Positions 11,150 through 58,664 of a DNA stretch of 64,000 nucleotides are shown one piece after another (the first letter of the stretch is position 1; each line of letters begins with the position of its first letter). Below the pieces are notes generated by a model, which was given only the letters and a program-made list of their open reading frames with translations, had not been told where the DNA came from and made no database searches. Position numbers and translations under genes: made by a program. This DNA comes from a virus (taxonomy: Duplodnaviria > Caudoviricetes): IMG/VR virus record IMGVR_UViG_3300007083_000004, positions 64,001-128,000 of that record, one strand, 5' to 3'.

Positions 11150-11164
11150 TATATTACTATAATG
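11150..11164 (+). promoter_or_regulatory. Putative early (virion RNAP) promoter
   Basis: TATATTAC-TATAA-TG; matches the phiKZ early motif TATATTAC. Confidence 0.65.
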
Positions 11165-14085: not shown

Positions 14086-14110
14086 TTGTTTTTGTATAAT
14101 AGTTATAAAT

Positions 14111-16165
14111 TTAAGTATCCACACCTCTATAAAACATTTTAACAAGACTAAGTGGTGTACCATTTGCTACAAATGATGCCATATGTGAAGGACTAATCCA
14201 ACTCTTGAAATTGGCAATTTTTCTGGTAATATTACCTCTAAGCAATTTAGTCATATAAATATTATCGTCTAAATCTACTCCAGCCAATATATTCATGTAA
14301 TCAGTAAAGACAGTATGCTCATCAAATGTCCCTCTAAAGGGATTTAGTGAAAAATTCTCTGCAATTGGTATGTGCATTATGGAACTCAAATCCTTTACAG
14401 TAAAAGTAACTTCGATTCCCATGGCTTGCATATGTTTATTAAAAGGTAAATTTGTAGTACCCCTTCTAACCGATATAGAATCTATAATACCCAATCTGGT
14501 TTGTTGTTTACCCTTATCAAATAACTGACACAAAAATGGAGACGTATAAGATTGTTTACCAGTAGATCTAGGTAATGCACCAGCTAATATACAAAATAAA
14601 GGTATATACATATTAAACAATTGAGATAAAGGATTCCCATAAGGAGATACTAAACTCATTGTATAAGATTGACTGGGTAGTGAAGCAGAAGATGATTCCC
14701 ATCTATCTGGAATATCAACAAATGCAGCCCCACCCAATACAGCTAAACCGGAAATACCGAACGAATCTGTTACTCCGGCTGCAAAATTCTTGGCAGTCTC
14801 TACAACCGTTCCTATAGCTCCAGTTATGTTTCCACCAGATATATTAAACATTGCAGATCTAGCAGAAGAAGATGTAGAGTTTATAGTACCTGCTATATCA
14901 CTTTGTGTAGTGGAATTAGAAAAAGACTCTGACACTTCACCGGTGGAATTTACTCTTAAGCATATGAATAAGGCACCATCATCGAGTTCAGCCGAAGTTA
15001 ATTTTGCAAATCCCTGTTCTTCACTTATTTGTTTTTGTACATCTCCAGTAGCTGCGTTAGAATATTTAATGGTATAATCATCATCTACAGTATAATCGTC
15101 AGCCAATGGTAATTCCGGTGCCATGTTTATTAAAGTAGAATCTACATTGGCTTTTTGTACTCCCTGGGTTTCAGGTGGGGTTGTAGCAGTATTATCTGTA
15201 GAACTTGGAGCATATTTATCTTCTTTTGAAAGAAACGTATCTTGATATTTCTTCCACGTACCATCTAAACCCAGATCGCCATAAGGACCTACGGCTCCAA
15301 TGTCGCCGGATCTTACCATTTGTCTAAATTTACTAGATACTGCATCAAAGGTTATTTTTTTATCTTTACCACTTAATAAACTTTCCAATCTTTTCATATA
15401 TAATCTCTTCCTACGATGAGAAAGTGTAGCATATCTATATATGTCTATATGTCCAGTTTCATCTATTATTTCTAAAACTTCAGACATTTTCTTTAATTCT
15501 TCTTGTGTATAGTTATTAAACTGATTAGCTTTTTGATTAACATCACTCGTCCAGACTCTGGGTATTATGCCCCTTTCTACAGCATAATGGTTTACCATTG
15601 TAGTTACAGTATTCCAGTATAATCTCATGGCCTGATCAAAATAATAGTATTTTGATCCTGTATGTCCTGTAAGGAATCTAACTAAAGGTATACCTATGGC
15701 AGCAGCCAGCATTATTGGATTATACAATACTATATTTAATACTATTAATGAACCTGCGGCTCTACCAAACCAATATGCCATACCAGGATTTGTTCTACCT
15801 GTATTAGCTAAAATACCAGCTTGAGCATTATAAAATCCAGTAAAAAACTGATTCATGTTATTAAATTTTGGTATACCGAAACTCAAATATATTTTTTGTT
15901 GTGTTAAACCAAATGTTTCATCGTGATATCTACCTACTCCCAACGTAGTATTATTAAAAAAATTAGGTTGTCTTTTTATATCACAATGTCTGGTAAATTG
16001 AGGTAACGGATTTAAAACTTCAGCTCCACCAGGAGATGTGTCAAATGGTCTAGCTATTACTTCTGTAAACAATGCTTCTTCTACTAATCTCTTATCATCT
16101 ACACCTTCCGTTGCCATCATGAAGGATCTTTTTAACCATTTATCCGATTTAGTAATAACGGCCAT
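14111..16165 (-). CDS. Tail/baseplate structural protein (phiKZ gp182-like)
   Basis: 684 aa; SPYGNPLS, LPRSTGKQSYTSPF, LGIIDSISVRRG; directly downstream of the gp181-like gene. Confidence 0.75.
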   Translation of the reverse strand: MAVITKSDKWLKRSFMMATEGVDDKRLVEEALFTEVIARPFDTSPGGAEVLNPLPQFTRHCDIKRQPNFFNNTTLGVGRYHDETFGLTQQKIYLSFGIPKFNNMNQFFTGFYNAQAGILANTGRTNPGMAYWFGRAAGSLIVLNIVLYNPIMLAAAIGIPLVRFLTGHTGSKYYYFDQAMRLYWNTVTTMVNHYAVERGIIPRVWTSDVNQKANQFNNYTQEELKKMSEVLEIIDETGHIDIYRYATLSHRRKRLYMKRLESLLSGKDKKITFDAVSSKFRQMVRSGDIGAVGPYGDLGLDGTWKKYQDTFLSKEDKYAPSSTDNTATTPPETQGVQKANVDSTLINMAPELPLADDYTVDDDYTIKYSNAATGDVQKQISEEQGFAKLTSAELDDGALFICLRVNSTGEVSESFSNSTTQSDIAGTINSTSSSARSAMFNISGGNITGAIGTVVETAKNFAAGVTDSFGISGLAVLGGAAFVDIPDRWESSSASLPSQSYTMSLVSPYGNPLSQLFNMYIPLFCILAGALPRSTGKQSYTSPFLCQLFDKGKQQTRLGIIDSISVRRGTTNLPFNKHMQAMGIEVTFTVKDLSSIMHIPIAENFSLNPFRGTFDEHTVFTDYMNILAGVDLDDNIYMTKLLRGNITRKIANFKSWISPSHMASFVANGTPLSLVKMFYRGVDT

Positions 16166-33227: not shown

Positions 33228-34010
33228 ATGCATGGAGCGGTAGAATACAATTGTCAAGTATTAAATGGTACCAATAAGGCTGGTACATTGAGAAAAAATG
33301 AAAATGGATATTACGAGATGATTGTTGGTGCTCTTAACATGACGAACAATGTTGGGGAGTACTACGATTACAATTATGCACGTAAATTTTTTGACGAAGC
33401 CAGTGATTTAGTCAGAATGAGTAAAAAGGGTGTATTAAGAGGAGAATATGGCCATCCTCAAATGTTACCCGGCATGACGGATGATGATTATGTATCCAGG
33501 CTATTGATGATTAATGAAAAAGAAACATGTTGTCATCATAAACGAATATATCTGGATTTTAATCATTTTAAAGATTCTAATGGCAAGCCTATAGTTGGCA
33601 TCATGAGTGAAATATCTCCCAGTGGTCCATATGGCGAACCATTAGAAAAACAAATAAATAATGGTCATGAAAACGTGTGTTTTTCTATCAGATGTTTTAC
33701 CATGCCACATAGAAAAGGTGGTAGGGTAATAAAAGAGATGAAACATGTCGTAACTTTTGATTATGTAAATGAACCGGGCATTTCTGTTGCTACTAAATAT
33801 AATTCTCCTTCGTTGGAGAATAATGGAAAAAAAATATTTACCGAAGGTACAGTAAAACAGGCTGCTAGAAAATTGATTGATAATAAACATTCTAATGAAT
33901 CTGCTATTATACCAGTTACAGCTTTAATGAACTCCATGGGTTGGGAATTAAAAAACAGTAAAGAAGCAAAAAGAAACTTCTTTGAATTATTAAATACAAA
34001 AAATTTATAA
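33228..34010 (+). CDS. Prohead maturation protease (phiKZ gp175-like)
   Basis: LRGEYGHP, PSGPYG, CFSIRC (catalytic Ser), VTFDYVNEPGI. Confidence 0.9.
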   Translation: MHGAVEYNCQVLNGTNKAGTLRKNENGYYEMIVGALNMTNNVGEYYDYNYARKFFDEASDLVRMSKKGVLRGEYGHPQMLPGMTDDDYVSRLLMINEKETCCHHKRIYLDFNHFKDSNGKPIVGIMSEISPSGPYGEPLEKQINNGHENVCFSIRCFTMPHRKGGRVIKEMKHVVTFDYVNEPGISVATKYNSPSLENNGKKIFTEGTVKQAARKLIDNKHSNESAIIPVTALMNSMGWELKNSKEAKRNFFELLNTKNL

Positions 34011-34020
34011 TCATTGTTAT

Positions 34021-34059
34021 TTATTCTACTCTAGAGCATTTTTCTCTAGAGTAGAATAA
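34021..34059 (+). terminator. Terminator hairpin (16-bp stem)
   Basis: TTATTCTACTCTAGAG...CTCTAGAGTAGAATAA. Confidence 0.75.
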
Positions 34060-34169
34060 TGAAATTTATTGTCTTCGTTTATTCAGTTAGTTGATTATAA
34101 ACTAACTCATCATATATTTTTATTGGCTTAACTACAGCCGATCTTCTATTTATTTTTTATTTTGTTTAT

Positions 34170-34400
34170 TATGATGTGGTAATAAGAAATGCGCAGGAGA
34201 CAAAGATTTTGCATACGACCAATGTCTGCAACGTACTTCCTATTACCAAAACGCGGAGTTTGAGAGATCTGCGTTCATAAACGAAGCATAGTTTCATAAC
34301 TCTCCTTTACGAGAGGAAGTTCTTGAAACAGGGTACTGCGATAGTCAACCAACGCAGTACCCACCACTGTATACAAAGATTAAAACGTATACATCATTAT
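34170..34400 (+). ncRNA. Candidate structured non-coding RNA
   Basis: GC-enriched island without a credible ORF; five consecutive stems with G-U pairs; lies between two terminators. Confidence 0.55.
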
Positions 34401-34438
34401 GGTTATATGTATGTGAAAATTGTTTTAAAATAGAATTA

Positions 34439-34476
34439 TATAGATGACGGTGAGGCATGCCTCACCGTCATCTATA
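34439..34476. terminator. 38-bp perfect palindrome
   Basis: TATAGATGACGGTGAGGCA/TGCCTCACCGTCATCTATA. Confidence 0.75.
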
Positions 34477-34503
34477 AGCTATATGTTAGTTATTTTTTAT
34501 CAA

Positions 34504-34537
34504 TATATTACTAATTTGAGTATTGTTCGATACTCAA
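34504..34537 (+). promoter_or_regulatory. Putative early promoter with 5' hairpin
   Basis: TATATTAC-TAATT-TG, then GAGTAT...ATACTC. Confidence 0.7.
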
Positions 34538-34606
34538 TAATTTTTTATAATATTTGCTATTAAGATGATCCGTCTATTACTTTCCTTAAAGGAGAAAATT
34601 TTTAAT

Positions 34607-35083
34607 ATGAAAACTACTGATGAGAAAAAAGTAGTTGAATTTCTGGGTAATGAATATGACATCGAGGCTTTAGGACGAGCGGTAGGATCGTCTGTAGATG
34701 TTTATATTAAACCAGATGATCAAATTCATGAAATAATTTTTGATCAAGAAAAAATGCCGGTTAAGTGGAAAAAAGATTTTAAACGACCCATCATGACGGT
34801 TCATACTGGCAAATATGTTTTTATATATAAACCTGACAGTTTGGTTATGGAGAAAGGTTTTAAAGCCAGACTCATTTCCAAATACCTTTTCAACAAATGT
34901 AAACACAAGGAGTTTGAATATGAAATAGAAACGCCTCAATCAAGATATCCAGAATCTTTTTCAAACAGATCTACTTTTAAACCTAGAAATAGTTATAATG
35001 GTGAAAAAAGGTCTTTTGATAAACCGTATGGATATAAACGTAACGATGAAAGAAGTACAATCAAATCCAGTAGAACATTTTGA
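34607..35083 (+). CDS. Hypothetical protein with basic disordered C-terminus
   Basis: AAGGAG RBS before ATG 34607; ARLISKY motif. Confidence 0.7.
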   Translation: MKTTDEKKVVEFLGNEYDIEALGRAVGSSVDVYIKPDDQIHEIIFDQEKMPVKWKKDFKRPIMTVHTGKYVFIYKPDSLVMEKGFKARLISKYLFNKCKHKEFEYEIETPQSRYPESFSNRSTFKPRNSYNGEKRSFDKPYGYKRNDERSTIKSSRTF

Positions 35084-49092: not shown

Positions 49093-49734
49093 ATGTCAAC
49101 TATCAATTTAATCGATGGTGTTGTTTATACCGATGGATATATTGTTAAATATACCGGTAGACCATATAAAATCGATGGAGCTACAATCCGATTTCTTACC
49201 TATAGAGGAAACGTCAATAGCTTTGAAAGATTTATTAATCACATGGATGATTTAGTTGACATCAGGTATTTTGATACTGGCGATGAAATTATTAATATGA
49301 CCAATGACATCGTAGTCATGTTAAAACATTTGCAATATGAAGATCTCGATATTGTATTTGGTGGTTATAACGAAGAGAAGAAAGAATTTCAGCACAAACA
49401 TGTAGATTTTAATATTGGAAAGATTTATAACCTGCATTCCGATATAGTAATAGGCGATGATTTGCCGTTGGTTCCTTTTGTATTGAATTTGGTATCGGAA
49501 CAAAAACTGAAAAAGGATATGTTGGGGCTATTTTGTTTATTTAATAGCGAAGATGAATGTTTGATTGATTATTTTGATGAAAATACGGATAGTATTGTTA
49601 GGTTATATTCGGGATTTATGGATTATATAACTAAAGAACAATATGGTTATGTAGAAAAATGTTCTTATGGTTTAAACAAACGAATCCAGGCGTTGAAAAT
49701 GGGAGAGGTAGAAAAAGGTCAAGAAGATAAATAG
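49093..49734 (+). CDS. Hypothetical protein
   Basis: 213 aa; AAAAGGAAAT RBS. Confidence 0.75.
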   Translation: MSTINLIDGVVYTDGYIVKYTGRPYKIDGATIRFLTYRGNVNSFERFINHMDDLVDIRYFDTGDEIINMTNDIVVMLKHLQYEDLDIVFGGYNEEKKEFQHKHVDFNIGKIYNLHSDIVIGDDLPLVPFVLNLVSEQKLKKDMLGLFCLFNSEDECLIDYFDENTDSIVRLYSGFMDYITKEQYGYVEKCSYGLNKRIQALKMGEVEKGQEDK

Positions 49735-54700: not shown

Positions 54701-54733
54701 TTTGTTTGTTCATTTTTAGAATTATTTCATATA

Positions 54734-54773
54734 TATATAACTATAGTGAATTAAGACGATTGTGTTTTAATTC
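54734..54773 (+). promoter_or_regulatory. Putative early promoter with 5' hairpin
   Basis: TATATAAC-TATAG-TG, then GAATTAAGAC...GTTTTAATTC. Confidence 0.6.
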
Positions 54774-54795
54774 TTAATCCTAATAGGAGAAAATC

Positions 54796-55176
54796 ATGGA
54801 ACTCATCAATATGACCTGGTATTTCGAACTGGCCGTTTTCCTTTCCATTACCATTCCAGCTATTCCTCATTATTTCTGGTCTAAGAAAATTACCAAAATT
54901 GCAACAAACAAGGTCTATGTTGGTGACTTTGATCTGACCAAATGGAAGTATGTTCACTCATTATTGATTCCTTCCTTCATTCTCACTGGAATTATGCTGT
55001 TTGGAAGTTTTGATATCTCTACTATACTGAAAGTAGTGTTGTGGATGCAGGTGGCAGCATGGGTGTTACAAGTACCTACCGGCCTTTATCTATACAAAAG
55101 GTTGTATGGCCTTAATAAGCATAACACGGGAAGTTACAATGTTAATTTTCCTAACTTCAAAATGGTTGTGAAATAG
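54796..55176 (+). CDS. Membrane protein (about 3 TM)
   Basis: 126 aa; AGGAG RBS; terminator at 55186-55225. Confidence 0.75.
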   Translation: MELINMTWYFELAVFLSITIPAIPHYFWSKKITKIATNKVYVGDFDLTKWKYVHSLLIPSFILTGIMLFGSFDISTILKVVLWMQVAAWVLQVPTGLYLYKRLYGLNKHNTGSYNVNFPNFKMVVK

Positions 55177-58602: not shown

Positions 58603-58641
58603 TATATTACTCAATTGAGTTAGAATAATTCTATTCTAACT
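58603..58641 (+). promoter_or_regulatory. Putative early promoter with 5' hairpin
   Basis: TATATTAC-TCAAT-TG, then AGTTAGAATA...TATTCTAACT. Confidence 0.7.
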
Positions 58642-58664
58642 AACTTTAAAACGGAGAGTTTATC

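Follow-up and report, generated by a model that had tools for sequence, protein, structure and literature searches.

What is encoded by the folded island at positions 34170-34400, and on which strand is it read? The window, the whole stretch of 64,000 nucleotides analysed here, covers bases 64001-128000 of a viral record of 200,349 bp (IMG/VR; 31% GC). A first-pass annotation of this DNA had described the island as a late, plus-strand RNA of a class that it did not recognise. We arrive at a different reading, to which we give about an even chance: the island is an early and autonomous cassette on the minus strand, and its product would be a small, tightly folded mRNA encoding a membrane-type peptide of 42 residues.

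The source of the window is an uncultured phiKZ-like (chimallivirus-type) jumbo phage related to RSF1. The left syntenic anchor of the locus is the prohead (head maturation) protease gene on the plus strand (33228-34010; Peptidase S80 family), identified by Pfam PF20034 at 2.8e-80 and by PHROG 3014. This protease shares ~70% amino acid identity with those of the RSF1, RSL2 and FLC phages (Ralstonia/Burkholderia), which are the closest cultured relatives. The genes around it were assigned by Pfam and PHROG profiles to virion proteins, tail tube and tail sheath. The right syntenic anchor is the downstream gene, also on the plus strand (34607-35083; PHROG 30527), which shares 32% identity (E 5e-30) with the RSF1 gene located directly 3' of the RSF1 protease gene. 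A protease-anchored search of viral contigs gave no confirmed relative. The closest protease among 5.8 billion proteins is just 72% identical, and therefore no close relative is usable for covariation or Ka/Ks tests.

The spacer between the protease gene and the next gene is 177-189 nt long in seven relatives' loci, compared to ~555-597 nt here. The seven loci are those of RSF1 and six metagenomic relatives and represent five distinct sequences, as L005 and L007 duplicate L004 and L006. The relatives' spacers contain a terminator hairpin, a T tract and a promoter-like ATTTTCA-N5-ATATAAC or a close variant of it. An orthologue of the T tract is found 3' of the protease terminator in all relatives compared. 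The early-type promoter of the downstream gene (34481-34519, plus strand; core ATATTAC at 34505-34511; 29.9 bits, a training site of the promoter matrix) is orthologous, in the spacer comparison, to the promoter in the relatives' ~180-nt spacer. Searching the syntenic interval of related genomes had been suggested in the first-pass annotation, and this search found the island to be absent from the spacer in all seven loci. Since the flanking genes are orthologous and the relatives' spacer has no island, the island is an insertion relative to all known relatives. A role in head assembly or packaging, which had been proposed earlier, is not upheld: its sole basis was the adjacent gene, and the nearest relatives have retained both the protease gene and the gene after it without the island. 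As a phage-encoded folded RNA of ~170-230 nt, the island product would resemble phi29 pRNA, but the island has no pRNA-family match, and relatives with the same head genes lack it. We know of no requirement for RNA in the packaging of phiKZ-like phages.

Phage morons are autonomous promoter-gene-terminator units that are inserted between conserved genes, as in lambdoid phages. The cassette appears to be a moron-like insertion. Like morons, it lies between genes that are adjacent in the nearest relatives, with a promoter of its own and flanking hairpins, and its G+C content (39-43%) differs from that of its surroundings (21-36%); it thus has the features of a moron, including a putative terminator on the minus strand. 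Unlike morons, it is very small (~0.3 kb) and oriented against the flanking operon, and it belongs to a three-member intragenomic family with a common leader and trailer but unrelated ORFs.

The structural part of the earlier description was largely reproduced. All five stems listed there are present (34177-34248, 34251-34274, 34291-34329, 34331-34362 and 34368-34393), and so are the complementary ends ATGATG (34171-34176) and CATCAT (34392-34397). The reported GC enrichment is also found, with a GC content of 0.39-0.43 over 34200-34400 versus 0.21-0.29 in the flanks and the rest of the spacer. A comparison of the fold with dinucleotide shuffles, also suggested in that description, gave -70.3 kcal/mol for the plus strand versus -43.2 +/- 4.2 kcal/mol for the shuffles (z -6.45), and none of the 200 shuffles was as good. 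The minus strand of the island folds at -74.8 kcal/mol (z -6.04), which is as good as or better than the plus strand. Because the island folds well on both strands, the stems alone do not determine the strand. The G-U pairs in the predicted folds (five on the plus strand, seven on the minus strand) do not decide it either. When the hairpins are compared individually, the minus strand is favoured energetically in three of the five, and H2 and H3 are slightly more stable on the plus strand. The intergenic DNA of this genome is rich in long perfect hairpins, and many 150-nt intergenic windows have z < -6. What is distinctive here is the tiling of a GC-rich island by five hairpins without gaps, rather than the z-score.

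The two palindromes said to flank the island were both recovered. The left one, a perfect 16-bp palindromic hairpin at 34021-34059 found in the palindrome scan, terminates the protease operon and may also terminate the minus-strand cassette transcript. On the minus strand, no clean terminator is located directly 3' of the fold; a T run is located ~15 nt beyond the 34021-34059 hairpin, and a hairpin followed by a distal T run is also found 3' of both paralogous cassettes described below. The right palindrome, a perfect 19-bp one at 34439-34476, lies between two divergent promoters and scores as a minus-strand terminator, with its T run on the minus-strand side in the terminator scan. It insulates the cassette from the right, and its terminator-then-promoter layout recurs at the paralogous cassettes.

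A further element at 34122-34165, found on the plus strand in the terminator scan, consists of a short hairpin (34122-34142) and a T tract (34144-34164). On the plus strand it looks like an intrinsic terminator that faces the cassette and ends immediately before the folded island. On the minus strand it corresponds to the A-rich 3' trailer and small hairpin common to the three cassettes (alignment columns ~305-325). The T tract at 34144-34164 was also considered as a plus-strand promoter of the island and was rejected, as the -10-like box is missing and the same tract trails terminator hairpins elsewhere in the genome. An 8-bp hairpin, AGTTAGTT/AACTAACT, was observed at 34084-34108, with the protease terminator on one side and the cassette trailer on the other. 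A leader hairpin that is repeated at 58611 and at G000 163323 has similar arms. This hairpin is adjoined by a second AUGAUG (minus strand, 34113-34108), a potential competitor for the closing-helix strand of the island.

The strand of the island was addressed through its promoter. A 30-nt repeat detected by BLAST within the genome led to the 17-mer TTTCAYAYAYATATAAC, which has six genome copies at <=1 mismatch versus 0-2 in shuffles. A promoter position matrix was derived from 14 other sites of the genome, with a training range of 23-37 bits, and 400 kb of sequence was scanned. The minus-strand site at 34431-34398 scores 25.0 bits, within the training range. The best match outside the promoter set scores 15.2 bits, excluding a duplicate of one training site (window position 54735, 36.7 bits). 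On the plus strand upstream of the island, there is no matrix match above 8 bits. The predicted early-type promoter (34398-34431, minus strand) contains an upstream A/T element, the 17-mer box (34418-34402) and the core ATATAAC (34408-34402). The start predicted from the N4-RTGA initiation motif is the A at 34397, and the closing helix of the fold begins with this base. This agreement between the promoter-predicted +1 and the structural boundary is the strongest single argument for the minus strand. The plus-strand reading of the first-pass annotation is not supported by these results, as the sole strong promoter match points leftwards, on the minus strand. Its proposal that the island has a transcript of its own fares better: own transcription is very likely. 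The 34398-34431 site is the sole promoter of its class on the minus strand of the record, which fits an inserted and inverted cassette and is equally a reason for caution.

The early promoters of phiKZ have a conserved AT-rich box near -10 and a T-rich element upstream of about -19 (PMC7598289; PMC8244752). The 34398-34431 site has the sequence features of this early class of phiKZ-like phages, in the published layout, and by its motif is predicted to be an early promoter of the virion-RNA-polymerase type. The late timing proposed earlier is thus replaced by an early one, as the promoter is of the early type with a T-rich element and an extended -10-like box, rather than of the late TATG type. 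The TATG from which a late start had been proposed is indeed present at 34170-34173, but a 4-mer in DNA of 31% GC carries no weight. A TATG motif cannot suffice alone as a late promoter (PMC7598289). This correction of strand and timing changes the design of probes, fusions and knock-downs for the locus, and the promoter matrix is now usable for an uncultured RSF1-related phage.

About 16 early-type promoters were observed genome-wide, composed of a T-rich element, ATATWAC, four bases and DTGA, and all except that of the island are on the plus strand. Within the window they are located at 11151, 34408 (minus strand), 34505, 54735, 55262, 58604 and 59196. In RSF1, the motif of this set occurs ~8 times; the core motif with N4-GTGA is enriched there, with 9 matches versus 2 in the control, and most of these matches precede ordinary genes. 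Three of the 17-mer copies precede small ORFs, each with a ribosome-binding site and hydrophobic by eye. The 30-nt repeat at 59173-59202 is identical to 34402-34431 at 29 of 30 positions, on opposite strands, and represents an extended promoter; the copy at 59173 precedes a 77-codon hydrophobic ORF with a GTG start at 59258. An identical stretch of ~88 nt is present at window positions 54706-54800 and at L011:827-920 (G000 49326-49419). It contains a promoter, a leader hairpin, a ribosome-binding site and the first codons, and it precedes two different membrane-protein-like small ORFs. This repeat is a regulatory module duplicated onto different genes. In addition, a ~28-nt hairpin, GAGTTAGAATAATTCTATTCTAACTAAC, is located directly 3' of two early promoters (window 58611-58650 and G000 163323-163360) and may be a conserved 5' leader or operator.

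Read on the minus strand, the predicted folded RNA domain extends from 34397 to 34171. From 5' to 3', it consists of the 5' strand of the closing helix (34397-34393), hairpins Ha (34393-34368) and Hb (34362-34331), hairpin H3 (34329-34291), which encloses a ribosome-binding site and an ATG, hairpins H2 (34274-34251) and H1 (34248-34177), and the 3' strand of the closing helix (34175-34171). The positions of Ha and Hb are conserved across the three cassettes. In the predicted fold of 231-241 nt, a helix of 5-6 bp pairs 34397-34392 with 34176-34171. In the predicted ensemble of a longer minus-strand transcript, the 3' strand of this helix can pair instead with the second AUGAUG at 34113-34108, and H3 keeps the ribosome-binding site and ATG mostly paired. 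The GAGAG/CTCTC pairing, which had been interpreted as a pseudoknot, turns out on the minus strand to be the ribosome-binding site pairing with an anti-site inside H3. A tRNA-like acceptor ending in ACCA at 34363-34366 was also considered and rejected; these bases are complementary to the UGGU that links Ha to Hb, and no tRNA-like model matches. The UGGU linker aligns with CAG-rich linkers of the paralogous cassettes.

The island had also been said to contain no credible ORF. This statement is correct for the plus strand and incorrect for the minus strand, where a 42-codon ATG ORF (P0121; 34297-34169) is located behind an AAGGAG. The spacing between the ribosome-binding site and the ATG is short (4 nt), and the C-terminal half of the encoded peptide is hydrophobic. 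The stop codon of P0121 overlaps the 3' strand of the closing helix. The ORF has no gene call in the source collection.

Two further cassettes of the same appearance were identified in the genome, both outside the window, so that the genome contains three with the minus-strand island. The L009 cassette (G000 14107-14400; L009:1093-1400 = G000 14092-14399) carries the ORF P0122 of 41 residues, and the L010 cassette (G000 59818-60100; L010:1015-1300 = G000 59814-60099) carries P0123 of 52 residues. Alignment of the three cassettes indicated a common promoter, RUGAUGUAU, Ha, a CAG-rich linker and the long perfect GC-rich hairpin Hb. In all three, the next module is a hairpin that carries the ribosome-binding site and the start codon, at a distance of ~93-103 nt from the predicted start. 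The 3' part consists of an ORF of 41-52 codons tiled by hairpins, an A-rich trailer, and a hairpin of 6-7 bp with a similar loop. When the three cassettes were compared, the fold z was -5.3 for the island and -7.1 and -10.9 for the L009/L010 paralogues. Ha and Hb are kept by RNAalifold, with changes on both sides in 13 of the 26 pairs, a count that is indicative only as it comes from three sequences. A covariance model of the leader finds exactly three cassettes in the genome, namely its own training members (E 1e-15 to 1e-17), and has no match in RSF1. The preservation of the same ordered modules in three paralogues argues for selection on a transcript.

The peptides of the three cassettes are mutually unrelated. 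In L009 (L009:1219-1233), the ATG that aligns with the other two start codons opens a mini-ORF of just three codons. The TGA of this mini-ORF overlaps the ATG of the 41-codon ORF (an ATGA overlap), which could represent termination-reinitiation coupling or a frame change.

Whether the 42-codon ORF is translated was considered from its position, its composition and its paralogues. The purely non-coding nature that had been attributed to the island is not supported, as a ribosome-binding site, an ATG and a hydrophobic ORF of 41-52 codons are present at the same position in the three cassettes. By chance, an ORF this long with site and ATG arises in 1.05% of shuffles for the island (P = 0.0105) and in 0.1% for L010; for L009, 5.6% of shuffles contain some ATG ORF of such length. 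The maximum 19-residue hydropathy values of P0121, P0122 and P0123 are 1.89, 2.59 and 1.98, which are reached by ~12% (interpolated), 2.5% and 10% of chance ORFs of like size in the genome, respectively. The codon-frame log-likelihood is -5.1 for P0121, +4.2 for L009 and +0.1 for L010, with references of +9.3 +/- 3.8 for real 42-codon gene pieces and -8.1 +/- 5.5 for out-of-frame ORFs. The GC3 of the P0121 ORF is 0.45 versus a gene mean of 0.25, and a 51-codon ORF behind the same promoter class, which is assumed to be a gene, has a GC3 of 0.46. No homologue of P0121 was found among 1.8 billion representatives.

The codon usage of the 42-codon ORF, which looks non-coding, suits a second explanation that we consider possible though doubtful, namely an early structured non-coding RNA that uses the same minus-strand promoter and start and in which the ORF is incidental. 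The product would be either the folded domain of ~225 nt or a short RNA of Ha and Hb that ends at Hb, a terminator-like hairpin. The short form has a parallel in phage 201phi2-1, in which short sRNAs derived from intergenic regions or 5'UTRs are reported to be made by early termination (PMC11512511), but in two of the three cassettes Hb has no proper U tract. A non-coding product is consistent with the burial of the ribosome-binding site and ATG and with a unit so tiled by hairpins that few bases are single-stranded. Conservation within the family lies in the leader hairpins and the trailer rather than in the peptides, which also favours a non-coding product. On the other hand, the ribosome-binding site, the ATG and the ORF are equidistant from the start in 3/3 cassettes, for which the joint chance is low, and the L009 peptide, whose codon score is positive, is a textbook N-terminal membrane anchor. 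The structured small mRNA is preferred because its layout is homologous with the better-supported ORFs of L009 and L010. It is the best single reading, and the minus-strand non-coding RNA is a serious rival to it.

A third explanation, which we consider improbable, is that the island makes no RNA of its own and consists of DNA-level inverted repeats (for instance a protein-binding site, a recombination site or a replication landmark) or of the decaying remnant of an inserted cassette. In its favour, the stems are mostly Watson-Crick and fold on either strand, other hairpin arrays are present in the genome, and the unit is an orphan without homologues; however, the promoter copy is intact and high-scoring with its +1 at the first paired base, G-U pairs are present in the folds of both strands, and the same ordered modules are kept in three paralogues. 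Least probable of all is the plus-strand, late, TATG-initiated non-coding RNA of ~230 nt first proposed for head assembly, packaging or as a protein decoy: although its fold is significant (z -6.45), a TATG occurs at 34170-34173, the hairpins H2 and H3 have slightly lower energies on this strand and the 34439-34476 hairpin lies downstream, no plus-strand match to the promoter matrix exceeds 8 bits, a terminator-like hairpin and T tract end immediately before the island, TATG alone is non-specific, the T run of 34439-34476 is on the minus side, the features conserved in the paralogues have their 5' to 3' order on the opposite strand, the island is absent from relatives that have the same protease, and neither pRNA nor any other Rfam family matches it at gathering thresholds.

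For the preferred reading, an early minus-strand message, the structure, promoter match, paralogy and insertion were computed, whereas we infer transcription, translation and any toxicity. A moron-like unit would have been inserted on the minus strand, downstream of the prohead protease gene and ahead of the next conserved gene. The early-type promoter at 34431-34398 would start an RNA at ~34397, presumably by means of the virion RNA polymerase. This RNA would open with AUGAUG and fold into the leader hairpins Ha and Hb, a third hairpin would hide the ribosome-binding site and ATG, and two further hairpins would form inside the 42-codon ORF. The 5' end of the RNA could base-pair with the final bases of the ORF. 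In this way, the RNA's own structure may keep translation of the 42-residue peptide closed, as in the type I toxin mRNAs aapA1 and hok. The three paralogous cassettes have promoter, leader, start-site position and 3' trailer in common and differ in their short, unrelated hydrophobic ORFs.

The aapA1 mRNA of Helicobacter pylori is 250 nt in its full-length form and encodes a 30-residue peptide, with pairing of its 5' and 3' ends and a sequestered ribosome-binding site (PMC5416894). The putative message has several features in common with type I toxin mRNAs (aapA1/IsoA1, hok/Sok), including a length within ~225-400 nt, nearly complete pairing, several paralogous copies per genome, a putative hydrophobic peptide of fewer than 60 residues, a predicted buried ribosome-binding site and possible 5'-3' pairing. 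In contrast to type I systems, neither an antisense antitoxin RNA nor a promoter for one was detected at the cassette, which also shows no sequence similarity and has no Rfam match. Its location is not a bacterial chromosome or plasmid but the genome of a lytic jumbo phage, where it follows a phage early promoter; the codon usage of P0121 is atypical, and the toxicity of the cassette is putative. No phage-type promoter above 8 bits is present antisense to any of the three cassettes. The sole sigma-70-like site on the plus strand (34091-34118) would yield an RNA of ~40 nt that has no overlap with the ORF. As neither a phage-type nor a sigma-70-like promoter for an antisense RNA was found, toxin-antitoxin pairing is unsupported. 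We do not claim that the cassette is a member of the type I toxin-antitoxin systems; by analogy, its layout may be said to resemble theirs.

The earlier statement that the RNA is of an unrecognised class is in line with our searches, as Rfam cmscan returned no family match in the island. At gathering thresholds, only two tRNAs located elsewhere pass in the whole window. A permissive Rfam scan of 33950-34650 (E up to 10) returned only chance-level matches to microRNA and sRNA models, and both paralogous cassettes were scanned against Rfam with no match. ARAGORN detected no tRNA or tmRNA in the island. At the DNA level, neither the spacer nor the two paralogous cassettes had a match in 50,697 phage records, and scans with promoter-plus-leader patterns gave no match in viral contigs, in metagenome contigs (two patterns) or in genome contigs.

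Small RNAs of phiKZ-like phages, including sRNA001-011 of 201phi2-1 and a phiKZ sRNA upstream of gp182, have been proposed to be regulatory (PMC11512511). The cassettes are similar to them in being short units of chimallivirus-type jumbo phages with a terminator-like hairpin close after the start. Those sRNAs, in contrast, were delimited by their transcript ends, are encoded upstream of conserved tail genes and have been conserved in different genera, whereas the cassette has no counterpart in RSF1, carries an ORF and is known from sequence alone.

Most early genes of nucleus-forming jumbo phages are orphans, and defined folds are known for few phage RNAs. The cassette is an orphan of kinds that are already known, either a moron or a small early gene whose message would be self-closing. 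Tentatively, the three cassettes could form a private family of early, almost fully paired RNAs of ~230-260 nt with a common leader and trailer and variable cores, which would be either self-silenced messages similar to those of type I toxins, encoding small membrane peptides that a lytic phage uses within the first minutes of infection, or a new class of structured early non-coding RNA to which the short ORFs do not matter. If the three cassettes are translated, they would add structure-gated small membrane peptides to the earliest stage of infection, with possible roles in host takeover, superinfection exclusion or membrane depolarisation. Without translation, they would represent a new family of folded early RNAs.

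A further observation concerns RSF1, in an unannotated stretch of 0.8 kb located downstream of the thymidylate synthase gene (NC_028899.1 148588-149385, minus strand; L021:789-1586). In it, an early-type promoter is followed by a ~160-nt leader that carries a hairpin with a CU-rich loop and a strong terminator. An uncalled ATG ORF comes next, which by eye is open for at least ~125 codons.
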